Part shown: piece after piece, positions 12,416 through 25,489 of the stretch | Position numbering within the stretch: the first letter of the stretch is position 1 | How the letters are laid out: each line of letters opens with the position of its first letter | Assembly: GCA_030765265.1 (NCBI GenBank) | Contig: JAVCCZ010000040.1 | Span: 1 to 59,606 of the forward strand | Reading direction: 5' to 3' | From: Candidatus Erginobacter occultus | GTDB taxonomy: Bacteria; Auribacterota; Erginobacteria; Erginobacterales; Erginobacteraceae | DNA: 59,606 nucleotides | Notes under the pieces: generated by a model | Seen by the model: the letters and a program-made list of their open reading frames with translations, nothing else | Databases searched by the model: none | What the model was told of the DNA's origin: nothing | Translations under genes and position numbers: made by a program

Positions 12416-12436
12416 GTGATCGGTAATCAGTAATCG
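12416..12436. repeat. tandem heptamer array, 3 units, opposite orientation (GTGATCG GTAATCA GTAATCG)
   Basis: Read directly. It lies between convergent genes and contains the epsI stop (12427-12429). It encodes ..ATDY. Confidence 0.85.
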
Positions 12437-13086
12437 GTGGCCTGGTCACTTTTCAGCAGGTACTGCTCGAGGGCGGGGAGGAGGGAGCGGGCGAAGTCGG
12501 CGACCATCTCGTCTCCGATCTCCGGGTCGAACGCCCCCTCCACCGAAACCCGGACCAGCAGCGCCGGCCGGGGCTCTCCCAGCAGGATATTGCCGATAAT
12601 CAGTAGCTGCTGGCGGTAATAGTCCCCGAGGATTGTCTCCCCGTAGGTATACCAGTAATAGACCAGGCTCTTCCCCCGCGGCCCGAGAAAGACCATCCGA
12701 TGGGCCGGAACCATCCCCCCCGCCCATTCGACGGACTTTTGGCCCCGCTCCACCATCTCGGTCCGGCCCCCAACGTAGCAGTACTTCGGGGGGTGGAAAC
12801 TCGCCCGGTTGGAGGAACACTCGAGGATATAGAGGTAGAGGAACCGGTCTCCCTGCCGGTAGAGGCGGAGGAGGAGGTTATCGGTCCCGAGAATCGCCCG
12901 GTCCCGGGCCGAGACCGGGATATCCTCCCCGCTCCAGTCCCCGATCTTCAGGGGAAGCCGGTCAAGGTCCCCGGCGGGGAGAATGTCCTCCCGCCCCCGT
13001 TCGAGCAGCCAGCCCAGGAACCCGGACGCCAGGACCAGGAAGAGACAGCAGAAATATGCCCGCCTTCCGGTTAACGGAGCAGCCAT
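12427..13086 (-). CDS. epsI: exosortase-associated EpsI family protein
   Basis: N-terminal TM segment, then LPLKIGDWSGEDIPVS, FHPPKYCYVGG and LVYYWYTYGE, as in EpsI. Overlaps the exosortase stop by 16 nt. Confidence 0.75.
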   Translation of the reverse strand: MAAPLTGRRAYFCCLFLVLASGFLGWLLERGREDILPAGDLDRLPLKIGDWSGEDIPVSARDRAILGTDNLLLRLYRQGDRFLYLYILECSSNRASFHPPKYCYVGGRTEMVERGQKSVEWAGGMVPAHRMVFLGPRGKSLVYYWYTYGETILGDYYRQQLLIIGNILLGEPRPALLVRVSVEGAFDPEIGDEMVADFARSLLPALEQYLLKSDQATDY

Positions 13087-13946
13087 CGCGCCACCTGAAG
13101 AAAGATTAAGAAACAGAACAGGAAGATCCCGATCCCCAGAGCGATATGCCAGAACCCGGAGAGGATACCCGGCCCGGCCGTCTGGCGGAGAACGATCAGG
13201 CTGACGACCCGGAGGAGGTTGCTTAAGGGGGCGAGCAGCACGGCGGCCGCGAAGAGAACCGTCCGGCGGGGAAAGCTCAAGGGGAGGAGGAGTGCGAAAA
13301 ACCCGCCCAGGGCGCCGAAGGAAAAGAGCGACCGCAGTCCGCTGCAGGGGTCCCCGATCTTCAAGGTCTCCCCGGGGGGGCCGGAGGGAAGAATAATCTC
13401 GATCCCGCTGTGGACAATCGGGATTCCCAGCAATCTCCCCAGGGCAACCCCGGCGTCGACGGCCGCGGTCTTGAGCCGGAAAGTGATGGCGATGATCCAG
13501 ATCCCCGGGAGCGGGATCATCAAGACGGTCAAGAGCAGCGGTCCGACCAGGTACCGGGCCCGGCCGAAGCCGAACCGGGCCAGGACCAGGCTGAAGACCA
13601 CCACCGGCAGCGCGGCCGCGGAAAGAAAGTTGATCCCGAATAACCGGGCCAGGAGATGAAGGGCCAGAGCCGGGACCAGGATGACCAGGCCGGACCGGCT
13701 CGGCCGGGGGGGGACGGCGAGGATAAGCTCCCGGCGCCGGTAGATCAGGAACGCGATTGCCGCCGGGATCAGCCAGCCGTGGCCGTAATAGGAGTTCTCC
13801 TCGAAAAACCGGGCGTTCATCCAGACCAGGGTGGGATAGAACAGGAAGATGACCGCGGCCGCCATCAGGGAAAAGGAGGCGATCATTTTTCCCCGACCGG
13901 AGCAGCCTCCGCTCTCCCCGGCAACGGCAAGGGCGACCGGTCTCAT
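13071..13946 (-). CDS. exosortase (EpsH/Xrt family transpeptidase)
   Basis: Polytopic protein with IGDPCSGLRSLFSF (catalytic Cys), NLLRV (Arg) and FWHIALG (His). The start is set at the ATG at 13944-13946, which forms an ATGA overlap with the deacetylase stop. The track ORF runs to 14030. Confidence 0.85.
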   Translation of the reverse strand: MRPVALAVAGESGGCSGRGKMIASFSLMAAAVIFLFYPTLVWMNARFFEENSYYGHGWLIPAAIAFLIYRRRELILAVPPRPSRSGLVILVPALALHLLARLFGINFLSAAALPVVVFSLVLARFGFGRARYLVGPLLLTVLMIPLPGIWIIAITFRLKTAAVDAGVALGRLLGIPIVHSGIEIILPSGPPGETLKIGDPCSGLRSLFSFGALGGFFALLLPLSFPRRTVLFAAAVLLAPLSNLLRVVSLIVLRQTAGPGILSGFWHIALGIGIFLFCFLIFLQVARWLLR

Positions 13947-14728
13947 CGCCCCTCCTCCCCCGGCCGGCGGTGGCGGAGCCGGAAGAGATCCCGCAGGGAT
14001 TCGGCCAGGTAGATCTTCCCGTACCCCCACCCCCGGCCGGAGAGGAGGGCCCGGAATTCTCTTGTGGAGATCCCGGCCCGGATCGGAAACCGGCGGAGCC
14101 GGAAGGGATCGGTCCGGAGAGTATTGAAGCCCGGACGGGAGGTGCAGAGCCCGCGGTAGCCGGCCCTGCGGGCCAGCCGGGGAAGGGCCGGGGGCAGGTA
14201 GCCCCGGGGGAGGGAGAAATGTTCCGCTTTCAGGGCGAGATTTTCCGCCAGCAGCCGGCGGGACTCCTCCAGTTCCCAGCGGAGGTCCGTCTCACCCCGC
14301 TGGGCCATCAGTTCGTGGTTAAGACCGTGGGAACCGATCTCCATCCCGGCGTCCCGGAGCCGGGCGGCCTCATCCCAGGTCAGCATCCCCGGCCGGCCCA
14401 GGTGGGAGACACTGAGGAAGAAGGCGGCCCGGAAGCCAAAGGAACGAAGCAGGGGAAAGGCATCCGTGAGGTTATCGGCGTAGCCGTCGTCGAAGGTCAG
14501 GATGACCGGACGGGGAGGAAGCTTCCCCCTCCCCTCGCGGGCCGCAGCCAGGTCTTTCGGGAGGATCGGAGTCCAGGCGCCGGAGAGAAGGACGGAGAGG
14601 TGGTCTGAGAAAACCGCCGGGGAGACCCGGTAGCCGATCGGCCGGCAGGCGGGGGGGAGTTCCCCGTACTCCCCGGAGTCGGAGACGCTGTGGTACATCA
14701 GGATGGGAATATTTAACCGCGGGTTCAT
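13943..14728 (-). CDS. polysaccharide deacetylase family protein
   Basis: ILMYHSVSD, ILTFDDGYADN and GSHGLNHE motifs (NodB fold). Confidence 0.85.
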   Translation of the reverse strand: MNPRLNIPILMYHSVSDSGEYGELPPACRPIGYRVSPAVFSDHLSVLLSGAWTPILPKDLAAAREGRGKLPPRPVILTFDDGYADNLTDAFPLLRSFGFRAAFFLSVSHLGRPGMLTWDEAARLRDAGMEIGSHGLNHELMAQRGETDLRWELEESRRLLAENLALKAEHFSLPRGYLPPALPRLARRAGYRGLCTSRPGFNTLRTDPFRLRRFPIRAGISTREFRALLSGRGWGYGKIYLAESLRDLFRLRHRRPGEEGR

Positions 14729-14808: not shown

Positions 14809-15690
14809 CTATTTGGGACTCTGGCGAAGTTTATCCCCCGCCGGCCGGAACTCGAAGAGGGTGATCTCCGGCGGGCAGAGGAACCGGACCGGGAGCGCCT
14901 TGGGGGCGATCCCCCGGTTGACATAAAGGACCCCTCCCCCGAGGGAGTAGAGTCCCCGGATATACTTCGACCGGCCGAAATACCGGTGAAAGATCGCCGG
15001 CCAGCCGGGCAGACCGATCAAACCCCCGTGGGTATCCCCGGAGAGGACCAGGTCGGCGCCTCTCTCGATCAGCAGCGGGGCCAGGTCGGGGTCATAGGAG
15101 AGGAAGATCAGGGGCGCTCCGGCCGGCAGGTCTTCCAGGATACGGTCGATCTTTTCCGTCACCCCCGGAACCTCGTAACCGGGGAAATCGATCCCCGCCA
15201 GGTAGAATATCTCCCCCCGCCGTCCGGCCATCGGCAGGCATTTTCCTCCGACCAGGGAGAGGCCGGCCCGCTTCCATCGCTCTTCATACCCTCCCGGGGG
15301 CAGGTAGATCCGGTCGGAATTGCCGAGGATGGCGTAACTCCAGATCCGGGGACGGAACTTTTTTACCAGTTCCTCCACCAGTTCCGGGGCCGCGGCTTCC
15401 ACCAGGTCGCCGGTGATCAGGATGATATCCGGTTCGATCCGGTTGAGCTTCCGGACCAGTTCCCTTTCCCGGAACCCCAGGCCGCCTTTCAGGTGGAGGT
15501 CGGAGATCTGGGCGATGGTCATCCCGGCCAGGGGCCCGGAGAGTCGTTCGTCCTCGATGATCACCCGCTCGACGACGATCCAGTTCGGCTCCAGAACCAG
15601 GGCGGTGAAGATGAGGAACCCGAGGACGGCGGCCGCCGAACCTCCGAACATAACCGCAACCAGCAGAATCTTTCGCCCCCTCCTCCTCAT
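14809..15690 (-). CDS. membrane-anchored metallophosphoesterase (calcineurin-like)
   Basis: N-terminal TM segment, then ISDLHL, ILITGDLVE and LSGDTHGG motifs. ATGA overlap with the upstream gene. Confidence 0.8.
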   Translation of the reverse strand: MRRRGRKILLVAVMFGGSAAAVLGFLIFTALVLEPNWIVVERVIIEDERLSGPLAGMTIAQISDLHLKGGLGFRERELVRKLNRIEPDIILITGDLVEAAAPELVEELVKKFRPRIWSYAILGNSDRIYLPPGGYEERWKRAGLSLVGGKCLPMAGRRGEIFYLAGIDFPGYEVPGVTEKIDRILEDLPAGAPLIFLSYDPDLAPLLIERGADLVLSGDTHGGLIGLPGWPAIFHRYFGRSKYIRGLYSLGGGVLYVNRGIAPKALPVRFLCPPEITLFEFRPAGDKLRQSPK

Positions 15691-17174
15691 TCGACCGTGA
15701 TCGTCCCCACCTCCCAGTTTTGGATCTCGAGATTGGTATAGGGCTGCTTGATGTAGTCAACCGGCCCTTCCGCCTGCATCACGTTGATCACCTCCTGCCG
15801 CCCGTCGTAGGCCATCCAGTCATCGATCTTGACATAACCACTTCCCGGGGAATCGGCGACGACATAGAGACCGGCCCGGACGACATAGGTCCCGGGGGGG
15901 GCGTCGGCCGAAATCATCAGGGGTCCGGAATCGACCGCCGCCTCCTCGTTCAACCGCCAGTTCCGGATCGGGGGAGTGAGACCGACGTCGGAACCGATAT
16001 TACCGGCCATATCGTTGACCCGGTAAACGTGGGTAAAGAGCTTATGGCGCTGAAAGATCGGCTGGTCGATAGTGAAGATGAACCGGATCAGGAAGGGACG
16101 GCCCCGCTCGACCTCTTCGGGCGCCTCCATCCGGACAAAGGTCACCGCCGGCTTCCCGGTCGGCTGGCCCCGGGAGATCAGCCGGAGGCCGGAGATATAG
16201 AAGGTGAAGGGGGTGGACGGGTTGACCAGGAAAAACTTTATCCGGCTGATCGCGCTGACGTTGATGGAACCGCTGAGATCGACCGTGGAGATCTCCAACC
16301 GTTCGGTCCGGCCCGAGGCCAGGGGGAAGGTTTTCTCGTAAACCCGTCCCGACCGGTCGGTAATCTGGAACCGCAAACTCCCCCCGCGGTTATCCGGGGG
16401 AAGATGTAGATTGAGCCGGAGGGTGTCGTAGGTCGACCAGTCGGCCCGGTCGGGGCGGAGGTTGAAGAAATTCTGAAGGATCACCCCCGGGTACTCGGCC
16501 ATCCCGGGGAGGATGGTAACCCGGACGGCGGAGACCGTCTCTTCGGCTTCGTCCTGGTAGCCCATAAACTCCACCCGCGCGCCCAGGGTCTCCCAGAAGA
16601 CGATCTCCGCCTCGCTGTCAAAGGCGATCAGGTCAAACTCGCTGGGACCATCCGGGTCGGCCCTTTCCGTAGCGGCCACCGTCAGCCGTCCGATGATGAA
16701 GTTCTCGATCTCGGGGTTGAGGTAGGGTTCCCGGACGTAGAGGACCACGTCCTCTTCCCGGACAATCCGGAGCAGGCCGGCCCGGATGTCGTATTCGCCC
16801 GGCTCGAGGTTGAAGGGGATCGCCAGGTCGAAGGGCCCCGCCTCCGCCACCTGGTTGACGTCCCAGCGCCGGGTGGAGTTGCGGGGGGAGAAATCGGCGT
16901 TGAGCACGGTATCGGTCTGCCCGGGGCGGACCAGGTGGAAGAATACCTTCAGGTTCTCCTCCAGGGGGCTGGTCGCCTTGAAGAAGAGGCTGCCGCTGAC
17001 CAGCTGCCCCTGGGCGATTACGGTTTGCAGGTTGAAACTGATCAATTCCAGCCGGGGGTCGCCATCCCGGACCTCGGTCCGGGAAGTCCCGTATCCCTGC
17101 CCGAAAAGGAGGTTGGGTAAAAGTGCCGGCAGGATAACCAGCGCCAATCCGGTTAACAGCGCCATCTTTTTCAT
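15687..17174 (-). CDS. secreted protein with two copies of an uncharacterised ~120-aa domain
   Basis: Signal peptide MKKMALLTGLALVILPALLPNLLFG. The internal repeat ends in PGEYDIRAGL...PYLNPEIENFIIGRLTV and PGTYVVRAGL...PYTNLEIQNWEVGTITV. Confidence 0.7.
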   Translation of the reverse strand: MKKMALLTGLALVILPALLPNLLFGQGYGTSRTEVRDGDPRLELISFNLQTVIAQGQLVSGSLFFKATSPLEENLKVFFHLVRPGQTDTVLNADFSPRNSTRRWDVNQVAEAGPFDLAIPFNLEPGEYDIRAGLLRIVREEDVVLYVREPYLNPEIENFIIGRLTVAATERADPDGPSEFDLIAFDSEAEIVFWETLGARVEFMGYQDEAEETVSAVRVTILPGMAEYPGVILQNFFNLRPDRADWSTYDTLRLNLHLPPDNRGGSLRFQITDRSGRVYEKTFPLASGRTERLEISTVDLSGSINVSAISRIKFFLVNPSTPFTFYISGLRLISRGQPTGKPAVTFVRMEAPEEVERGRPFLIRFIFTIDQPIFQRHKLFTHVYRVNDMAGNIGSDVGLTPPIRNWRLNEEAAVDSGPLMISADAPPGTYVVRAGLYVVADSPGSGYVKIDDWMAYDGRQEVINVMQAEGPVDYIKQPYTNLEIQNWEVGTITVE

Positions 17175-17258: not shown

Positions 17259-18293
17259 TCACATCCCGCCCCCGGCGGTCACGTTAATTTCCGAAACCTG
17301 GAAGCCCTCGATCTCCGGGTTGTCGTAGGGCTGGAAGACCAGCTCCTCCCCCCGGACGCTGAAAACCGGCTGGGCGAGGATCGCCTCCAGGTCGTAGGTG
17401 CCGGGCGGGAGGGCGGCGGGGATTGCCACCGGGAACGGTCCGACCTTGGCCAGCCGGCCCGGACGCCAGCGGCTGGTCGGGGTGGGAGGGTCGATCCGGC
17501 CGAGCGGGAAGAGGGTTTCTCCTTGGCGGAGCCGGAGCAGGAGGGTATTGTCGCCCGAGAGCTGACGGTTAACCAGGAAATAAAAGACCGCCTCCACCTC
17601 TTCCCCCGGCCGGACCGACGAGGGAAACTGCAGCCCCATAAACTTGACCAGCCCGGCGGGGGGGCGGGGAAGACCGGGGGCGGGGAAGGAGAAATCGATC
17701 AGGTAGAGGTCGGTGGCGGTGGCCGGCTCCCAGAGGAAGAGATTGAGATAACCGACCCGGCTCAGGTCGAGCCGGGAAGCGATGTCCCGGACCGGCACCG
17801 TGACCGCCGTCCGGGTCCGGGCCGGGATCTCCTGGTCCCGCTGGAAGCTGTGCCCGGAGGTATCCTTGACCTTGATCTTGAGGTTGACCGTCCAGGTCTG
17901 GGGGTTATAGACCGAGAAGGAGAGACTCTCCGCCCCCCGCCAGTCCATCACCCCCATCGTCTCGTCGGTCAGAAGCAGGCCGGGTGAGCCGGAAGGCCGG
18001 TAGGTGACCCGGACCCAGGTTTCATCCGTCCCCCAGAGCGCGGGGACCGCCTCCAAACTGGCCCCCGAAGTCTTCCAGACCTCCAGGTCCCCCGGATCGG
18101 CGAAGGAGAAGCTGACACCCGCCATCTCCCGGGGTTTGAAGACCGAGACCAGGGCCTGGGGTTCCCGCTTCAGCCGGCGGAAAAAACCGGGGATATTTCC
18201 CAGCCGTTCCCGGAAGAAAAGGAGAAGAACGACGACGATCAGGAACCCCCAGAGCAGGTGGAGTGAGAGCCGGAATAAACTTTTTCTTTCCAT
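17259..18293 (-). CDS. membrane-anchored protein carrying a third copy of the same domain
   Basis: N-terminal TM segment LHLLWGFLIVVVLLLFF. The C-terminus reads PTSRWRPG...GPFPVAIP...PPGTYDLEAIL...PYDNPEIEGFQVSEINV. Confidence 0.65.
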   Translation of the reverse strand: MERKSLFRLSLHLLWGFLIVVVLLLFFRERLGNIPGFFRRLKREPQALVSVFKPREMAGVSFSFADPGDLEVWKTSGASLEAVPALWGTDETWVRVTYRPSGSPGLLLTDETMGVMDWRGAESLSFSVYNPQTWTVNLKIKVKDTSGHSFQRDQEIPARTRTAVTVPVRDIASRLDLSRVGYLNLFLWEPATATDLYLIDFSFPAPGLPRPPAGLVKFMGLQFPSSVRPGEEVEAVFYFLVNRQLSGDNTLLLRLRQGETLFPLGRIDPPTPTSRWRPGRLAKVGPFPVAIPAALPPGTYDLEAILAQPVFSVRGEELVFQPYDNPEIEGFQVSEINVTAGGGM

Positions 18294-18574
18294 CTCCAGA
18301 CCAATAATGTTATGCTTTTAAACTGAAATAAACGGTGGTTGCCCCTTTGCCGACTCTGGCGGGATAACAGGCAACCGGAAGATAGCAAATTACCCCGTGA
18401 TTGTCAAATCGCCCCTCGCGTGCAGTCGGTGAGAAAAGTTCTCTTTACAAGATACTCCGCTATGGGATACATTGCATTCTCGAAGATGACATCAGGCAGC
18501 GGACCGGGGAGTTCAATCCCGCTCCCTTCCGCTACTTTATAATTATTATTGGGGTATCGGGGAGGCTTCAGGCA

Positions 18575-19402
18575 ATGCTCAAGACATCTGTCGGAATCAT
18601 CACTTCCATATTTCTGCTCGCCGGGATCTTTTCCCCCGCCCGGCTGGGCGCCCAATCCGCGGAAAAGGCCGATCGCACGGGGCTGGAGAGCGTCTGGAAG
18701 AAGTCGGGGCGGACGACCGGGGTGATTGATTACCCTTACAGCCCCCAGCCGGGAATTTACGGGGGGAAGACCGTCCGGGAGTGGGGAAACCGGGGCTATA
18801 TCTTCATCAACCCGCGGGCCGATGAGTTTATCCGCCGCCGGCCGTCCCCCAAGATCGACCGGGAAGAGGTCGTCCTGGAAACCGAGGACTGCCGGGAAGT
18901 CCGCGAGGGACTGCTCAACGAGGTCGCCGCCAACGAACAGCTCCGCCGGGAACGAGACCGGCTGTCGGAAGAACTCCAGACGGCGGAGCAGATCGCCGAG
19001 GACCGGGGGCTGATGATCGAGGCCCTGGAATTCCAGATCGAGGAACTGGAACCCGCTTCCGTCCCCGCCGGCGCCTGGACCGAACCCCGGACTGCCGACC
19101 GCGGCCCGGATGCGCCGGGATCGTCGGTCGAGCAGGTCGGCACTTATATGGTCAGGGAGGGCGACAGTCTCTGGAAGATCGCCGGCCTGCCCGGGATCTA
19201 CAACGATCCCTATCGCTGGCTCCTCCTCTATCACGCCAACCGGGACCAGATCTTCCTCCCCGATTTGATCTACCCGGGGATGGTCCTCCTGGTCCCCCGT
19301 TACCGGGAACTGGAGGAAAAGACAACCCCGCTCCCGGATGTTGAGCCGGGCGCGGAAGAAGCCGAAGCATTGGAAGTCACCCCCGATTACGAGGAAGAAT
19401 AA
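18575..19402 (+). CDS. secreted coiled-coil protein with a C-terminal LysM peptidoglycan-binding domain
   Basis: The start is moved to the ATG at 18575 (GGGGAGG upstream). Signal peptide MLKTSVGIITSIFLLAGIFSPARLGAQS. LysM: YMVREGDSLWKIAG...YPGMVLLVP. Its TAA stop abuts the next ATG. Confidence 0.75.
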   Translation: MLKTSVGIITSIFLLAGIFSPARLGAQSAEKADRTGLESVWKKSGRTTGVIDYPYSPQPGIYGGKTVREWGNRGYIFINPRADEFIRRRPSPKIDREEVVLETEDCREVREGLLNEVAANEQLRRERDRLSEELQTAEQIAEDRGLMIEALEFQIEELEPASVPAGAWTEPRTADRGPDAPGSSVEQVGTYMVREGDSLWKIAGLPGIYNDPYRWLLLYHANRDQIFLPDLIYPGMVLLVPRYRELEEKTTPLPDVEPGAEEAEALEVTPDYEEE

Positions 19403-21481
19403 ATGGCGCGGATCAAGCTATTCAGCCGGGTAGTTCGGATCGCGGTCGTCCCGGCGGTTCTCTTCTGCCTCCCGGTCATTTCCGCCCGCTCCCAGACCGG
19501 ATCCTACGGGAGAGAGTACGCCGTCAGCCTGGAGAACTCGCTGCAATCCAAGCTCGACAACCTGATCGGGCCCCGCCGGAGCATCGTCAGCGTCGAGGTC
19601 ACCGTCTCCGACCCCTTTGCCCGCCGGGACGAAGACGCCGCCCGGGTGCTGGAAAGGCTGCCGGGGATCCGGATCCGGCAACCCGACCCCGGCGCGGAGA
19701 TGATGACCAGCCCCATCTCCAGCATCCATATCGCGGTCGAAGTCGATGAAGGCCTTCCCCCGGAGGATATCGGGACCGCGGAAGAGCCGGGAAGGATCCA
19801 GGAAGCCGTGGCCCGCTGGGCCCGGCTCAACCGGACCCGGGGCGATACCCTCCAGATCATCCCCCGACCGGCCGGATATTTCGCCCCCCCGCCCGAAGAT
19901 AAGCAGAGCTATATCCTCTATTCCCTCCTCGCCCTGATCGCCCTTTTGATCCTGATCGCCGCCATCTACTTCCCGATGCGGAAGGCGAAGGGAGGGGGAG
20001 GAGGCAGCGGCGAGGGCGGGGTGGTAGTCGGAGGGATGAAACTTTCCGAGGAAGAACGCAAACAGCGGCGGGCCGAGCTGGAAGAACTGAAGAAAGCCCT
20101 CTCCGGGATCTCCAGCGACACCCGGGAAGCCACCCTCTCCGGGATCAAGGAACTGATGGAACTCCAGGTCGGGGGGGGCGGCGGCGGCGGGCGGGTCGAT
20201 GTCGGCATCCTCGAAGAAATCCGCGACCTTTTGAGCAGCCCCGCCCAGGAATCGGACGCGCTGCTGACCGAGATGAGGGATACCCTCTCCGATCTCCTCG
20301 ACGAGCAGCGGAGACGCGGAGGGGGCGGAGGAGCCGCGCCCGGCGCCCCGGCGGCGGCCCCGGGAACGGCCCCGGCGGCCGCTGCCGCTTCGGCGGGGGA
20401 AGGAGGTTTCGGCGGTGGCGGCGGCGGTGGACAGGTCATCCAGGTTCTGGGCAACCTGGAGGAACTGATGACCCAGCAGCTGGAGCGGGCCCCCAGCCTG
20501 GTCGACCAGCCCTTTAAATACATCAAGTCAACCGACCCGGAGGATATCATCCTTCTGATCAAGGACGAGGAGCCGAAACTGGCGGCGGCCGTCCTCTCCC
20601 AGCTCGACCCCCAGACCTCGGCCTCGGTCTTCGAGGCGCTCGACGAGGAAAAACAGTTCGAGATGGCCCGGGCGATGACCCAGTTGACCGAGGAAGAGGA
20701 TATGGCCGACGAGATCAAGGACTTCCTGGAGCGGAAGCTGAAGATCGTCCGCCTGCGGAAGGACTACCAGCCGGTGACCGGGGTCCGGGTCCTGGCGGAT
20801 ATGCTCTCCTCCAGCCGCTACGCGATGGCCAAGGTTTTGCTGGAGAAGATGGAAGGGAAGAACCCGGCGATGGCCGCCGACGTCCGCAAAAGGATGTTCC
20901 TCTTCGAGGACATCAAGACCCTGGAAGATAAGGACGTGGAGACCCTGATCCACAACCTGAACATCGAGGTCCTGGCCGCCTCTTTGGTTGACGTCCCCGA
21001 AGACGTCAGCTCGAAGTTCTTGAAGAATATGACCGAGAAGGGCCGCGCCCGGCTGGAAGAGGATATGGAGGCGGTCAAGAAGGTCCAGATCGAGGAAGAG
21101 GGGCAAGAACTTCCCTTCAACGAGGCGATGCTGGCCGTCGACCAGTCGATTATCGACGAGATCTTCCGGACCATTGACCGGACCACCTTGAAGATGGCGC
21201 TGCGGGGGGGCTCGGAAGAGGTCCAGTCGAAGTTCTTCAGCGGGTTGACCGAGCGGGCGGCGGCGATGCTCAAGGAAGACCTGACGGTGATGGGAGGTAT
21301 CCCCCACTCCCGGGCGGTGGAGGCCCAGGAAGAGATTATGGAGGTGCTGCGGAAACTCTCCAGCAAGACCCTCTCCGCCCAGCACGAGATCATCGCCGTC
21401 ATCCGCAAGCTCTCTCACGACGGCCTGATCACCGTCCCCCACTTCCAGGACGAGGCCGGAAAAGAATCCGAGGAAAAATGA
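19403..21481 (+). CDS. membrane-anchored FliG-domain protein (FliF/YscJ-like periplasmic module, TM helix, Gly-rich linkers, FliG middle and C-terminal domains)
   Basis: Residues ~370-450, FKYIKSTDPEDIILLIKDEEPKLAAAVLSQLDP..., parallel E. coli FliG ..LIRDEHPQIIATIL... MFLFEDI is at 498-504. IDRTTLKMALRGGSEEVQSKFFSGLTERAAAMLKEDL...AQEEIMEVLRKL parallels the FliG C domain. The second TM helix is at ~169-192. Confidence 0.75.
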   Translation: MARIKLFSRVVRIAVVPAVLFCLPVISARSQTGSYGREYAVSLENSLQSKLDNLIGPRRSIVSVEVTVSDPFARRDEDAARVLERLPGIRIRQPDPGAEMMTSPISSIHIAVEVDEGLPPEDIGTAEEPGRIQEAVARWARLNRTRGDTLQIIPRPAGYFAPPPEDKQSYILYSLLALIALLILIAAIYFPMRKAKGGGGGSGEGGVVVGGMKLSEEERKQRRAELEELKKALSGISSDTREATLSGIKELMELQVGGGGGGGRVDVGILEEIRDLLSSPAQESDALLTEMRDTLSDLLDEQRRRGGGGGAAPGAPAAAPGTAPAAAAASAGEGGFGGGGGGGQVIQVLGNLEELMTQQLERAPSLVDQPFKYIKSTDPEDIILLIKDEEPKLAAAVLSQLDPQTSASVFEALDEEKQFEMARAMTQLTEEEDMADEIKDFLERKLKIVRLRKDYQPVTGVRVLADMLSSSRYAMAKVLLEKMEGKNPAMAADVRKRMFLFEDIKTLEDKDVETLIHNLNIEVLAASLVDVPEDVSSKFLKNMTEKGRARLEEDMEAVKKVQIEEEGQELPFNEAMLAVDQSIIDEIFRTIDRTTLKMALRGGSEEVQSKFFSGLTERAAAMLKEDLTVMGGIPHSRAVEAQEEIMEVLRKLSSKTLSAQHEIIAVIRKLSHDGLITVPHFQDEAGKESEEK

Positions 21482-21678
21482 TCAAGTTAACCAGGCTCAA
21501 CGGGCAGGAACTGGTCATCAACGCCGAGATGATCGAGCGGATGGAGGCCAAACCGGACACGATCATTACCCTGACCACCGGGGAACAGTATATCGTTCAG
21601 GATTCAGTCGATCAGATTATCGCCAAGGTTACCCATTACAAGCAGGAGATCAACCTCCCGCAAAAGAACCAACCATAG
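21478..21678 (+). CDS. flbD: FlbD family protein
   Basis: MIKLTRLNGQELVINAEMIERMEAKPDTIITLTTGEQYIVQDS matches the FlbD signature. 4-nt overlap with the upstream gene. Confidence 0.8.
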   Translation: MIKLTRLNGQELVINAEMIERMEAKPDTIITLTTGEQYIVQDSVDQIIAKVTHYKQEINLPQKNQP

Positions 21679-21689
21679 GGTAAAGCACT

Positions 21690-22442
21690 ATGCGCCTCAG
21701 TACCATCCTCGGCTTCATCGTTGGAATAACGGTTATTTTTCTTTCCATCTATCTCCGCGGCCCGGAGATGCTCCCTTACTTTCTCAACCCACCCTCGTTC
21801 GTGATCGTCTTCGGGGGGACGGCGGCCGCGGTGATGATCAACTTCAGTTTCTACCAAATCGTCAGCGGCCTCAAGGCCTTCCGTTTCACTATGGTCGGGA
21901 AGGTGATGGACCCGGAAGCGGTGATCAACCTGATCGTGGAGATGGCGGTCAAGGCGAGGAAGGAAGGCTTTATGTCGATCCGGGATCTCTCGACCAAGGG
22001 CCGCTATCCCCTGCTCGACATCGGGGTCGACCTGGTGGCCGACGGGACCGACCCGGGGATCACCCGGGGGATTATGGAGACGGTCTCCGACTACCTGCAT
22101 ATGAAGATCGGCGCCGACGAGCGGCTCTGGCGGGATGTCGGGGTCTACGCCCCGCTTTACGGGATGGTCGGGACCCTGATCGGGCTGATTATGCTCCTGC
22201 GGACCCTGACCGATCCCCAGACCATCGCCCCGAATATGTCGGTCGCCCTGATGACCACCTTCTACGGGATTCTCTTCGCCGGGATGATCTGTATGCCGGT
22301 GGCGGGGAAGATCCGGGTCTATAATACCAATATGGCCCTGTCCCGGGAGATCATCATCGAGGGGATCGCCTCGATCCAGGCCGGCGACAACTCTCAGATC
22401 GTCCGGGAGAAGCTCCGCGCCTACCTGGCCGGCCGGCAGTAA
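21690..22442 (+). CDS. motA: MotA/PomA-type stator channel protein
   Basis: Four-TM layout. APLYGMVGTLIGLI and ALMTTFYGILFAGMICMPVAGKI carry the two conserved prolines of MotA. Confidence 0.88.
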   Translation: MRLSTILGFIVGITVIFLSIYLRGPEMLPYFLNPPSFVIVFGGTAAAVMINFSFYQIVSGLKAFRFTMVGKVMDPEAVINLIVEMAVKARKEGFMSIRDLSTKGRYPLLDIGVDLVADGTDPGITRGIMETVSDYLHMKIGADERLWRDVGVYAPLYGMVGTLIGLIMLLRTLTDPQTIAPNMSVALMTTFYGILFAGMICMPVAGKIRVYNTNMALSREIIIEGIASIQAGDNSQIVREKLRAYLAGRQ

Positions 22443-22497
22443 TTCCGGCGGGCGGCCCCGTTTGGTCCGGGAAACCTTTCCCGGGAGGAGAAACACT

Positions 22498-23313
22498 ATG
22501 GCCGACGATACCGAACTCACCCCCCAGGTCGAACACGAGCGGTTCGCCATTGATTCCGGGAGCGAGGGCATCGGACGCGACTGGCCCCCGGATTGGATGG
22601 TCACTTACTCCGATATGACCACCATCCTGATGACCTTCTTCGTCCTCTGGTATTCCCTGACCGTGGCCGGGATCGACGAGGACCTGCTGAAGATGCGGGA
22701 ACAGGATGACGCCGATATCGTCCGGGGGATGGCCGAAGAGAGCCAGATGGATTTCGTCACCGAGGAGGAGTACCGGATCCTGACCCAGTTCCAGCTCCTC
22801 CCCCGCGAGCAGCAGGAGACCGTCCTCTCCGAGTTGGGGACCCTGCGGCTGAAGGCGGAAGAGGTGATGGAGTTTGTCCGGATGGGGAGGATGGAGGGCG
22901 ACGTCGAGCTTAAGGTGACGGCGGAGGATATCGTGATCATCCCCACCGCGCCGCTGGTCTTCCGGGAAGGCCGGGCGGAAATCCGGGAGACTTTCTACCC
23001 CATACTCGACAAGATCGCCTGGCTGATCGAGGAGACCGGGGCCTCGGTCCGGATCGAGGGGCATACCGACTCGACCCCGATCCACCCCCGACACCGGCAG
23101 AGGTTTCCCAGCAACTGGGAACTCTCCGCCACCCGGGCGATCGCGGTCGCCAATTATTTCATCGACCGGGGCGATATCCCCCCTGAACAGATATCGGCCG
23201 CCGCCTACGGCCCTTCCCGGCCCAAGTATCCCGACGACGATCCCGAGCTGAGGGGGCGCAACCGCCGGGTTGAATTCCATATCTACCTTGGATCCGAGAC
23301 GGCCGGGAGTTGA
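22498..23313 (+). CDS. motB: MotB-type stator protein (OmpA-like peptidoglycan-binding C-terminus), paralogue 1
   Basis: DWMVTYSDMTTILMTFFVLWY (TM helix with the conserved Asp). EGHTDSTP...SNWELSATRA...NRRVEF (OmpA-like). The start is set at the ATG at 22498, after GGAGGAG. Confidence 0.85.
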   Translation: MADDTELTPQVEHERFAIDSGSEGIGRDWPPDWMVTYSDMTTILMTFFVLWYSLTVAGIDEDLLKMREQDDADIVRGMAEESQMDFVTEEEYRILTQFQLLPREQQETVLSELGTLRLKAEEVMEFVRMGRMEGDVELKVTAEDIVIIPTAPLVFREGRAEIRETFYPILDKIAWLIEETGASVRIEGHTDSTPIHPRHRQRFPSNWELSATRAIAVANYFIDRGDIPPEQISAAAYGPSRPKYPDDDPELRGRNRRVEFHIYLGSETAGS

Positions 23314-23332
23314 ACCCGGCCGAACCCCGATT

Positions 23333-24157
23333 ATGCCTCACAGGAGAGCGAAAACCGACCCGGATAGCGGATCCTCCGACTGGCCGCCGGAGTGGATGAC
23401 CACCTACTCCGATATGGCCACCTTGATGATGACTTTCTTCATCATCCTCTCCACGATGCTGGCCTTGAAGATCCCGGTGACCTGGATCGCCGGGGACCGG
23501 ATGATCCAGTTGAGCGACCGGAGAATCGAGGACGCGATCGACGTCGAGCTGAGCCGGGAGGAGCAGGAACTCCTGGAGAGAATCCGGGATCTGCGGGAAC
23601 AGCAGATGCGGGAGCTGGCCAAGATCGACGAGATGCGGCGGATGGCCAAGGAGATCCAGCAGTACATCATCGACGCCAACTTAAGCCGCTTTGTCCGGGT
23701 CGACGTCAGTAAGTGGAAGCTGAAGATCGTCCCCCTCGCCCCCTTCCTCTTCCGCCCCGCCTCCGCCGACCTGAGGCCGGAGGGGAAGGTGTTCCTCGAC
23801 CTGCTGGCCCGGGTCTTTCTTCACGGCCCGGACGCCGAGGTCCGGATCGGGGGGCATACCGACGACATCCCGATCAACACCCCCCGCTACCCTTCCAACT
23901 GGGAGTTGAGCTGCGCCCGGGCGACCTCGGTGATGCGCTACCTGATCGACGAACACGGGGTCGAGCCCGCCATCCTCAGCGCAATCGGCTACGGCCCCCA
24001 CCAGCCGGCGGCGTCCAACGAGACCCCCGAAGGAAGGGCGATGAACCGGCGGGTGGAAATCGAGATCGTTCAGCGCCCGGGAGATTCCCTGGGATCGCTG
24101 TCCGCCGCCGCCGGCTCCGAACCCGCGGAATCGGCCCTGAACGCGGGCCGGGATTGA
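23333..24157 (+). CDS. MotB-type stator protein, paralogue 2
   Basis: EWMTTYSDMATLMMTFFIIL and GGHTDDIPI...SNWELSCARA...NRRVEIEI. The start is uncertain: ATG at 23333, or TTG at 23270 overlapping paralogue 1. Confidence 0.8.
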   Translation: MPHRRAKTDPDSGSSDWPPEWMTTYSDMATLMMTFFIILSTMLALKIPVTWIAGDRMIQLSDRRIEDAIDVELSREEQELLERIRDLREQQMRELAKIDEMRRMAKEIQQYIIDANLSRFVRVDVSKWKLKIVPLAPFLFRPASADLRPEGKVFLDLLARVFLHGPDAEVRIGGHTDDIPINTPRYPSNWELSCARATSVMRYLIDEHGVEPAILSAIGYGPHQPAASNETPEGRAMNRRVEIEIVQRPGDSLGSLSAAAGSEPAESALNAGRD

Positions 24158-24372
24158 GTGATCTCGTTCTGTTCCCGGTAGACCCTGGCCATCTTTTTAA
24201 TCCCCCGGCCCAGGACCAGGCCGAGCAGAATCCCCACCGCCGCTCCCAGGATTAAAACCGCCGCGATCCTTCCCCGGGAGAGCCGGGGGATCTTTTCCTC
24301 GGCCCGACCGCCGGCCACCCGGGTCTTGACCCGGATCTTCCGTTTTTCTTCAACTGGTGGCAATTCGTTCAT
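24070..24372 (-). CDS. possible small single-TM protein
   Basis: MNELPPVEEKRKIRVK...IAAVLILGAAVGILLGLVLG. Its 3' end overlaps motB2 convergently by 88 nt, and it has no recognisable family. Confidence 0.3.
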   Translation of the reverse strand: MNELPPVEEKRKIRVKTRVAGGRAEEKIPRLSRGRIAAVLILGAAVGILLGLVLGRGIKKMARVYREQNEITQSRPAFRADSAGSEPAAADSDPRESPGR

Positions 24373-25489
24373 CGGTTTCTTTCGACTGCTGCCGGCGCCG
24401 CCGGTAAAGGTTTTCGTAGGCGTCAATCATCCCCCGCATCCCGTAACCGGCGGCGACGGTTTTCCCCGCCGCCTTCCCCAACCGTTCTCCCAGTTCCGGA
24501 TGATTGAGAACCTTCTCAATCGCCCCGGCCAGTTCATTGCCGTCCCGGGGCGGGACCAGGAGACCGTTCTCGCCGTCATTGATCAGATCCGGACACCCCC
24601 CGACCGAGGTTGCCACCACCGGGCGTTTTAGGGCCATCGCTTCGAGAAGCGAGATCGGCAGACCCTCCCGGATCGAGCTGAGGAGAAAGAGATCTCCCCG
24701 GCCGATAATCTCCACCGCGTCCGGCCGGGAGCCGAGGAGAAGCACCCGGCCGGCCAGGCCCCGCTCCCGGATCTCCTTTTCCAGCTCGCCGCGCAGTTCC
24801 CCCTCGCCGAGGAGGAGGAAGTAGGCATCAGCCCGGCGGGAGACAACGAGTTCGGCGGCCGCGAGGAGATAGCGATGGCCTTTCTTCGGGGTGAGGGCGG
24901 CCGCGGTCACCACAATCTTTGCCGCCGCCGGAAGCTTTAGTTCGCGCCAAAAAGACTCGGGATCGGATCCCGGTCGGAGCCGGTCGGTATTCAAGCCGTT
25001 GACGATCACCTCGACCTTGCCCGGATCGATCCGGCAGCGGGAGATCAGCGATTGCCGGACCGGCGCCGAGACGGCGATAAAACGATCGGTCCGGAAAGAG
25101 AGCAGAAAGTCCAAGGCCCGGCGAAGGGGATTTTTCCATTCCGACATATTATGCTCGGTCCGCAGCAGCCGGACCCGGGGGAAGAAGAGCGCCGCCGCCC
25201 ACCCCCAGAGATGGCTGGAGAAGAGATGGGTCTGGATCACGTCCACCCGCCGCTCCCGGATCAGCCCGAGCAGCCGGCGGAAACCGGAGAGATCAAGGAA
25301 AGATTTTCTACCCAGGATAAAGACCGGAACCCCGATCGTTTCCAGCATTTCCGCCACCCCCCCGCCCCGGGTCAGGGCGCAGACCAGGAAATCGAACTCC
25401 CCCCGGTCTCCTTGTTGGACCAGGTCATAGACCACCATCTCCGCTCCTTCCCGGGGAAGGCTGTCGATAATGTGAAGTACAGTTGTCAT
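24350..25489 (-). CDS. family 4 glycosyltransferase (GT-B)
   Basis: VLHIIDSLPREGAE N-terminus and the C-terminal EGLPISLLEAMALKRPVVATSVGG motif. Confidence 0.88.
   Translation of the reverse strand: MTTVLHIIDSLPREGAEMVVYDLVQQGDRGEFDFLVCALTRGGGVAEMLETIGVPVFILGRKSFLDLSGFRRLLGLIRERRVDVIQTHLFSSHLWGWAAALFFPRVRLLRTEHNMSEWKNPLRRALDFLLSFRTDRFIAVSAPVRQSLISRCRIDPGKVEVIVNGLNTDRLRPGSDPESFWRELKLPAAAKIVVTAAALTPKKGHRYLLAAAELVVSRRADAYFLLLGEGELRGELEKEIRERGLAGRVLLLGSRPDAVEIIGRGDLFLLSSIREGLPISLLEAMALKRPVVATSVGGCPDLINDGENGLLVPPRDGNELAGAIEKVLNHPELGERLGKAAGKTVAAGYGMRGMIDAYENLYRRRRQQSKETDERIATS

Follow-up and report, generated by a model that had tools for sequence, protein, structure and literature searches.

A putative free-standing rotary motor built from flagellar rotor and stator proteins in Candidatus Erginobacter occultus

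The window analysed here, the whole stretch of 59,606 nt of contig JAVCCZ010000040.1 (GCA_030765265.1) from Candidatus Erginobacter occultus, carries at positions 18575-24157 an operon of six plus-strand open reading frames (ORFs) encoding, in this order, a LysM protein, a FliF–FliG fusion of 692 amino acids (aa), FlbD, MotA and two MotB paralogues (MotB1 and MotB2). We propose, with a probability of roughly 55%, that this operon specifies a reduced, flagellum-derived rotary motor, made of rotor and stators only and devoted to envelope work, probably on surface polysaccharide. Such a motor would stand alone because the parts that were kept make or receive torque, while those that were lost link FliG with a separate FliF, the switch complex and the export apparatus.

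The original prediction, drawn from the letters of the same window, had seen six same-strand ORFs packed as one operon, and its coordinates and junctions proved exact. The stop codon of the LysM gene abuts the ATG of the rotor gene (19402/19403), the rotor gene and flbD overlap by 4 nt in an ATGA (21478-21481), and the other intergenic gaps measure 11, 55 and 19 nt. The domains it had named (LysM, FliG, FlbD, MotA and two MotB) were confirmed with Pfam and NCBIfam, and the three peptidoglycan-binding domains that it had counted, LysM and two OmpA-like, have their Pfam matches. Taken as a whole that reading is partly supported, since the FliF part of the rotor, a duplication within FliG_C and two companion genes had gone unnoticed.

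A FliF–FliG fusion as the probable rotor

Judged from domain profiles and structural models, the 692-aa protein is a FliF–FliG fusion, in which an RBM3-type domain enclosed by two hydrophobic segments precedes FliG_M and FliG_C. Residues ~370-692, earlier assigned to FliG, score strongly against FliG models: Pfam FliG_C matches at 4.5e-35 (120.6 bits, cut-off 23.3) in two stretches and FliG_M at 1.2e-12 (48.3 bits, cut-off 25), while PDB FliG profiles match the rotor family at 2e-36. The NCBIfam FliG equivalog TIGR00207 gives 149.6 bits, under its cut-off of 226.7. In an alignment of 26 sequences, the torque-helix residues K610, R618, E625, D626 and R637 are invariant, as are M498, F499 and F501 of the MFxF hinge. 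These charges, compared with E. coli FliG K264, R281, D288, D289 and R297, align to the Thermotoga maritima segment SKRAAALLKDELE.

The unit formed by hinge, ARM_C and torque helix is duplicated in tandem (aa 495-566 and 567-645; 20885-21337), with a self-alignment score of 68 against 25.2 +/- 5.0 for shuffled sequences (z = 8.5), and this duplication accounts for the split Pfam and PDB alignments of FliG_C. Each rotor subunit may consequently carry two torque helices. The duplication is present in the Auribacterota-type clade and in the more distant fusions P0033-P0035, and absent from P0038 and P0040-P0042. No FliG_N match passes in the rotor, the only one (19.9 bits, cut-off 25) falling on the FliG_M repeat at aa 393-430; lacking FliG_N, the protein would be unable to dock on a separate FliF. 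The FliM-binding motif EHPQ, found in T. maritima at the aligned position, reads EEPK in the window rotor and its close family and EEPR, EDDR, EAAK, ENED or EDNQ in distant members.

The protein had previously been described as a membrane-anchored FliG. Both the FliG domains and the membrane segments are there, but the N-terminal part appears to be more than an anchor, namely a FliF-like ring-building periplasmic domain. The 135 residues between the hydrophobic segments are conserved across the same 26 sequences. The AlphaFold2 model of this domain (m322ff9d1b739) has a core pLDDT of ~80-86 and a low-confidence insert, and its top 17 Foldseek matches in the PDB are all FliF MS-ring, S-ring or RBM3 structures (E 6.7e-4 to 1.2e-2, probability 0.97-1.00, TM-score ~0.45-0.55). 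With the full-length rotor model, whose low pLDDT of 58 restricts it to a domain-by-domain reading, FliG ranks first and FliF RBM3 next. In the wider family, 9 of 12 N-terminal regions match Pfam YscJ_FliF_C at E<=1, the best of them at 6.8e-6, the sister-family proteins P0152 and P0181 pass its cut-off, and a Bacillota FliF matches the N-domain of the fusion from locus L024 (tblastn, E 2.6e-5). For RBM1 and RBM2, no Pfam YscJ_FliF match was obtained in the rotor, and the periplasmic region spans only ~135 aa.

Flagellar-type stator genes

By their sequences, the genes that follow the fusion are of flagellar type. FlbD reaches 95.3 bits over positions 1-58 of the 59 in its Pfam profile (PF06289) and retains N15, I19, E23, P26, D27 and T28, the conserved residues of SwrD (PMC13232269). 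MotA is recognised by Pfam MotA_ExbB (1.3e-20) and by solved MotA/PomA structures in the PDB (132-145 bits); it keeps both prolines and an R89/K90 pair equivalent to E. coli R90, and stays below the NCBIfam equivalog cut-offs (185 versus 341 for PomA). The two MotB paralogues match Pfam OmpA (8e-19 and 3e-18) and MotB_plug (6e-9 and 4e-10), and both have the transmembrane (TM) aspartate in a YSDM motif. Their best NCBIfam models are MotB, MotS and MotD, all under equivalog cut-offs.

Two other assignments were tried and rejected. For a Zorya system (ZorAB), PADLOC gives no match for MotA or its partners, only the OmpA-domain ZorB being matched at 61-80 bits. An Exb/Tol-type motor fares no better, with TolQ at E 0.0047 (16.7 bits) versus 1.2e-54 for PomA in NCBIfam.

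The tandem motB pair is kept in all family loci long enough to show it, including the distant L035 and L039. MotB1/MotB2 heterodimers are possible because both paralogues are always kept, and this retention hints at a heterodimeric B pair. AglRQS likewise uses two B-type subunits.

Table 1. Features of the operon and of its immediate surroundings (positions in the window)
Feature	Position	Strand	Remarks
Periplasmic LysM protein	18575..19402	+	signal peptide, conserved N-domain, coiled coil, C-terminal LysM
Rotor protein (692 aa)	19403-21481	+	predicted FliF RBM3-like domain + FliG_M + FliG_C
Rotor aa 1-31, signal peptide or TM1	19403..19495	+	hydrophobic segment aa 4-29; Q31 invariant
Rotor aa 32-166, predicted periplasmic RBM3-like split ring-building domain	19496..19900	+	alpha-beta-[insert]-beta-alpha-beta; AlphaFold2 + Foldseek
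Rotor aa 167-195, TM2	19901..19987	+	near-invariant; then basic residues, cytoplasmic side
Rotor aa 196-368, Gly/Ala-rich linker	19988..20506	+	two conserved helices; in place of FliF_C + FliG_N
Rotor aa 369-494, FliG middle domain	20507..20884	+	Pfam FliG_M; alignment to T. maritima FliG 1lkv
Rotor aa 495-566, duplicated unit, copy 1	20885..21100	+	MFLFEDI hinge, ARM_C-like, torque-helix-like NMTEKGRARLEEDMEAV
Rotor aa 567-692, copy 2 + rest of FliG_C + stop	21101..21481	+	canonical torque helix
FlbD/SwrD (66 aa)	21478..21678	+	Pfam FlbD 1.6e-27, full length
MotA (PomA/MotP-like)	21690..22442	+	NCBIfam PomA 1.2e-54
MotB paralogue 1	22498..23313	+	TM Asp, plug, OmpA-like; ATG within ORF opening at 22462
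MotB paralogue 2	23333..24157	+	36% identical to paralogue 1; ATG within ORF opening at 23270
Terminator-like hairpin 3' of motB2	24270..24290	+	8 pairs, 6 G-C, then T-rich tail; consensus match only
Divergent intergenic region	18294..18574	.	281 bp; promoter-like sites on both strands
Promoter-like site	18444-18473	+	TTTACA-18-TACATT, 9/12; consensus match only
Promoter-like site	18407-18379	-	TTGACA-17-TATCTT, 10/12; consensus match only
344-aa protein	17259..18293	-	N-terminal TM anchor (aa 4-32) + domains B-A'; first gene of divergent operon
495-aa secreted beta-rich protein	15687..17174	-	signal peptide; domains A-B-A'

Conservation of the module in loci without other flagellar genes

Full-length relatives of the rotor form 27 clusters with 51-95% identity, all of 686-710 aa, with 'PVC group bacterium' and 'Candidatus Auribacterota' among their source labels. 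The rotor is present in 11 GTDB species-representative metagenome-assembled genomes (MAGs); after these, the matches drop to ordinary FliGs at 25-29% identity. Gene content was established over 39 loci from gene tables and a tblastn table. The six genes remain together from 95% down to ~30% rotor identity, which agrees with the earlier suggestion of a self-contained module. Identity to the window proteins ranges across loci from 65 to 92% for MotA, 60 to 87% for FlbD, 48 to 81% for the fusion and 42 to 69% for the LysM protein. A pseudogene or relic was rejected, as functional residues are invariant and 26 intact proteins share 48-95% identity.

The LysM gene has its ATG 9 nt downstream of a GGGAGG, and the Pfam match of its product is marginal (1.5e-4, 22.1 bits, cut-off 20.9). 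Relatives of this protein amount to ~39 full-length clusters, and wherever a family locus holds the stretch immediately upstream of the fusion gene, such a relative is encoded there, L036-L039 included.

The absence of FliM/N, FlhA/B, FliPQR, rod, hook and flagellin genes nearby, already pointed out from the window alone, holds for the ~50 ORFs that cover the rest of the 59.6 kb, none of which is flagellar by Pfam. It extends to 431 kb of family loci, which were probed with 174 ORFs that surround fliG, within ~10 kb on each side, in seven canonical flagellar loci. These probes matched only FliG, MotA, MotB and one FliF segment, and no other flagellar gene was found.

The operon could still be an ordinary stator locus with a variant rotor, serving a conventional flagellum encoded elsewhere, in which the fusion joins or partly replaces the FliF/FliG ring. 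We regard this as unlikely, even though MotA, MotB and FlbD are flagellar-type, a natural full-length fusion exists (P0103), two FliF-FliG fusions still permit flagellar assembly and rotation (PMC4768692), and an artificial full-frame Salmonella fusion is reported to assemble rings (PMC6079021). The fusion described here is without RBM1/RBM2, FliG_N and EHPQ, and loci from contigs of 436, 201, 161 and 115 kb show EPS (exopolysaccharide) genes and no flagellar genes within 10 kb on each side. In canonical Clostridia loci, by comparison, flbD-motA-motB sits a few kb from fliG in one cluster. Finally, 6 of the 7 Auribacterota MAGs in PMC9324843 are said to be without flagella.

Polysaccharide genes and companion proteins

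In the window, an exosortase/EPS operon lies on one side of the module and a cluster for GT4, deacetylase and flippase on the other, in agreement with the original description of an exosortase/EPS operon and a glycan-assembly cluster. The ~50 further ORFs include, by Pfam, rhamnose-nucleotide enzymes, GT2, a sugar transferase, exosortase EpsH/EpsI, two polysaccharide deacetylases, GT4s and a Wzx-type flippase, as well as isoprenoid enzymes, Clp, trigger factor, DnaJ, LptFG and a two-component system. The EpsH and EpsI exosortase genes occupy 12427-14030 on the minus strand. An ORF of 118 aa with one hydrophobic segment (24070-24426, minus strand) runs antisense to the 3' end of motB2, and L001, L004, L005 and L035 each have a called gene of 84-117 aa at the matching position.

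Across the family, the usual upstream continuation comprises a metallophosphoesterase, a deacetylase and EpsH/EpsI, and the downstream one a GT4 and a deacetylase. Flanking EPS genes are seen in L001, L003/4, L007/8, L015-L021 and L035. Polysaccharide genes stand beside nearly all loci, and the envelope or surface-polymer role put forward earlier therefore fits.

Two genes transcribed divergently from the operon encode beta-rich proteins of 495 and 344 aa, which are paralogues (hhalign 99.9%, E 1.9e-37). Profile searches matched them to no family of Pfam, the PDB or PADLOC, and the weak hints for this family, Agarase_CBM and DUF4832, come from single members only. In most family loci, the distant L035, L038 and L039 among them, such a pair of about 340 and 490 aa opens the divergent operon next to the module. 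In L023, similarity of the 344-aa paralogue ends after ~residue 185 (~8445, minus strand) and gives way to Arg/Gly/Pro-rich sequence, which suggests a frameshift or an assembly error in the MAG.

Such a setting also invites a sensory reading, in which rotor and stator would not be an actuator and would signal ion-motive force, envelope stress or contact with a surface in order to regulate EPS production. Comparable cases would be the Caulobacter motor, whose tactile role in holdfast synthesis is independent of the filament, and the FliG-EpsE clutch of Bacillus. The module does sit inside EPS loci and shares a divergent promoter region, a hybrid histidine kinase and response regulators are encoded beside the fusion gene of P0042 (L036), and a PilZ protein is encoded near that of L043. 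We nevertheless find a sensor improbable: the conserved eight-gene set is devoid of a signalling output domain (GGDEF, kinase or receiver), the strictly conserved torque-helix charges, two MotBs and FlbD point to force generation, and a periplasmic RBM3 ring and a LysM partner are not obviously needed.

More distant fusions and sister families

An exhaustive profile search of 1.84 billion representatives retrieved more distant fusions. It was more informative than a word-indexed search with the N-terminal alignment, which returned 3 matches and was swamped by words from TM segments. The distant fusions P0033-P0042 measure 560-667 aa, and their loci repeat the LysM-type protein, FlbD, MotA, both MotBs and both beta-rich paralogues, here beside genes of GH123-like, GT2 or Wza/Wzz/Wzy type. 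P0042 is an exception and has a hybrid kinase as its neighbour instead.

Two sister families depart further from this layout. In the first (L040 9198-16324; L041 812-8337), a fusion of 674 aa combines YscJ_FliF_C, FliG_M, FliG_C and TPR, and the gene order is AAA_16/AAA_22 protein, fusion, 985-aa protein, FlbD, MotA and a single MotB, the 985-aa protein having no Pfam match on record. The second (L043 1-13238) holds an RBM3-FliG fusion, an ORF of 16,931 aa, UPF0164/TPR proteins, MotA, MotB and the PilZ protein. In L042 (1-11896), a locus of this second family that also has UPF0164/TPR proteins, the P0152 fusion follows an ORF of at least 3,521 aa. FlbD accompanies the sister fusions in L040 and L041, not in L043. 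No other flagellar genes were found in the loci of distant and sister fusions, and the taxon labels seen for versions of the module are PVC group, Auribacterota and Omnitrophota only. Separately, natural FliG fusions of other kinds, FliM-FliG and FliN(FliMN_C)-FliG, occur among P0054, P0102, P0103, P0113, P0124 and P0147, and P0103 is a natural full-length FliF-FliG fusion without FliG_N.

The giant ORFs adjoining sister modules would suit a non-rotating energiser, where MotA and MotB, in the manner of ExbBD or TolQR, would pass force across the membrane to the LysM and beta-rich periplasmic proteins and FliG would be a static cytoplasmic docking platform inherited from the flagellum. Other 5:2 motors reportedly drive non-rotary outputs (PMC9389320), and the MotAB-like SiiAB serves the type I secretion system of the giant adhesin SiiE (10.1101/641415). 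This explanation is very unlikely in our view. The A subunit is flagellar-type (TolQ E 0.0047 against PomA 1e-54), the B subunits keep the flagellar plug and an OmpA-type anchor in place of a TonB/TolA-type partner, RBM3 is a fold that forms rings, and the charges conserved on the FliG side are exactly those used for torque.

Comparison with known systems

With the flagellar motor's core, the module shares an RBM3-type ring domain (judged by fold), FliG_M and FliG_C with torque charges and MFxF hinge, PomA-like prolines in MotA, the TM aspartate, plug and OmpA domain of MotB, the FlbD residues and a gene order resembling that of Firmicutes and spirochaetes. It differs in having FliF and FliG on one polypeptide, with RBM1, RBM2, FliG_N and EHPQ gone, in the duplicated FliG_C unit, in the basic residue at the MotA E98-equivalent position, in the two MotBs per MotA, and in its EPS neighbours with no C-ring, export, rod, hook or filament genes nearby.

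The closest precedent is the FliF-FliG fusion of Chlamydiaceae (Bergeron 2016, PMC4768692), which is natural and comes from a PVC-group lineage regarded as non-flagellated. Compared by architecture only, this CT719-type protein is similar in its signal sequence, its shortened RBM region in the periplasm, its second TM segment and its FliG-like domain on the cytoplasmic side. It differs by its length of ~330 aa, by an RBM2-like and a second RBM-like region, and by the FliG_M-like domain being the only FliG domain reported. The chlamydial flagellar genes named are FliF, FliL and FlhA only, so that no MotA, MotB or FlbD is listed, and the fusion is suspected to work with the injectisome (PMC4768692).

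Non-flagellar 5:2 motors (ExbBD, TolQR, AglRQS, GldLM, ZorAB and SiiAB) are likewise ion-driven, A5B2-type and engaged in envelope tasks, and SiiAB, which serves a giant adhesin, echoes the giant ORFs beside sister modules. They differ in having no FliG-type rotor and in their Exb/Tol-like A subunits, labelled 'GIT' in the portion of PMC12505986 available. That survey of MotAB relatives separates flagellar from generic transporters; the same portion mentions FliG a single time and describes no non-flagellar system that bears FliG. Engineered Salmonella and Vibrio FliF-FliG fusions (PMC6079021, PMC11481574) resemble the rotor in being a covalent chain, and they show that such a chain can form MS-ring-type rings. 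They are artificial, have FliG_N and the full set of three RBMs, and operate as part of a complete flagellum. One of them, PDB 8z4d, is matched by the rotor family profile.

A description of the module was not found in the literature searched, which dealt with FliG-like, non-flagellar and orphan systems, Omnitrophota and giant genes and was partly noisy; the giant-gene preprint makes no mention of MotA or FliG. To our knowledge, every use of FliG and of flagellar-type MotAB lies inside the flagellum, and we know of no non-flagellar 5:2 motor that partners with FliG. It is possible, though we stop short of calling it probable, that the module is the first non-flagellar machine with a FliG-type rotor, that is, a free-standing ion-driven motor without a flagellum in the cell, which exists in several versions in uncultured bacteria and powers surface work, on EPS in Auribacterota-type loci and on giant surface proteins in sister loci.

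A model of the motor and its weak points

As a reduced rotary motor, the module might work as follows. The fusion protein would assemble, via its RBM3 domain, into an inner-membrane ring equipped with a FliG track of its own. MotA pentamers around MotB dimers, the latter perhaps of MotB1 with MotB2 and held to peptidoglycan by their OmpA-like domains, would turn this ring by ion-motive force through the MotA-FliG charge interface, with FlbD/SwrD helping the stators. The LysM/coiled-coil protein may act as a peptidoglycan-anchored periplasmic partner of the ring, either scaffold or bearing. Since no genes for an export gate, rod, hook or filament were found nearby, the output would be rotation or force on the periplasmic ring. 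The likeliest load would be the handling of a surface polysaccharide or of an envelope component that the flanking EPS genes produce. The two secreted beta-rich paralogues might serve as periplasmic or surface adaptors.

Such a module may have originated from a collapsed operon of Firmicute or spirochaete type, fliF-fliG-[fliHIJ...flgDE]-flbD-motA-motB. In canonical Clostridia loci, flbD-motA-motB shares a cluster with fliG and lies ~4.6 kb downstream of it, and given this layout the gene order can be read as that operon with the stretch from fliG to flbD deleted and fliF fused to fliG.

Several points weigh against this model. The position equivalent to E. coli MotA E98 and PomA E96 (aa 89-97 region, 21954-21980) is R or K in 17 of 17 family sequences. 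MotA R90 and E98 pair with FliG D289 and R281 (PMC7564593), so that with R or K at the E98-equivalent the MotA–FliG interface appears similar, not fully canonical. The residue that follows is acidic (D/E) in nearly all of the 17 sequences, and R618 on the FliG side is unchanged. On the FliF side, the N-domain of the window rotor reaches only E 0.09 against YscJ_FliF_C (13.7 bits, cut-off 23.8), and the structural match to RBM3 is moderate (TM-score ~0.5, E ~1e-3, model mean pLDDT 68). Ring formation, rotation, the MotB1/MotB2 heterodimer and the stoichiometry are what we infer from the parts encoded.

The genomic context adds its own reservations. Synteny is the sole line of evidence for the load and the EPS link. 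In L005 the upstream neighbours are ddl-ftsQAZ, and in the clade of L005, L010, L014, L018 and L022 the two beta-rich genes are not adjacent to the operon. Despite the exosortase genes, not one window ORF of at least 60 aa ends in a PEP-CTERM-like tail. The absence of flagellar genes covers the window and the related loci, which are parts of genomes, and PMC9324843 credits at least one Auribacterota MAG with encoding flagella.

Significance

If the model is true, the torque-generating core of the flagellum can exist alone. It would then offer structural and single-molecule work a much simpler rotor, made of one protein and free of switch complex and export gate, and it would inform ideas on how evolution built up or took apart the flagellar motor. 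For candidate phyla without cultured members, the module would represent an unrecognised energy-driven step in the biology of surface polysaccharides or giant adhesins.

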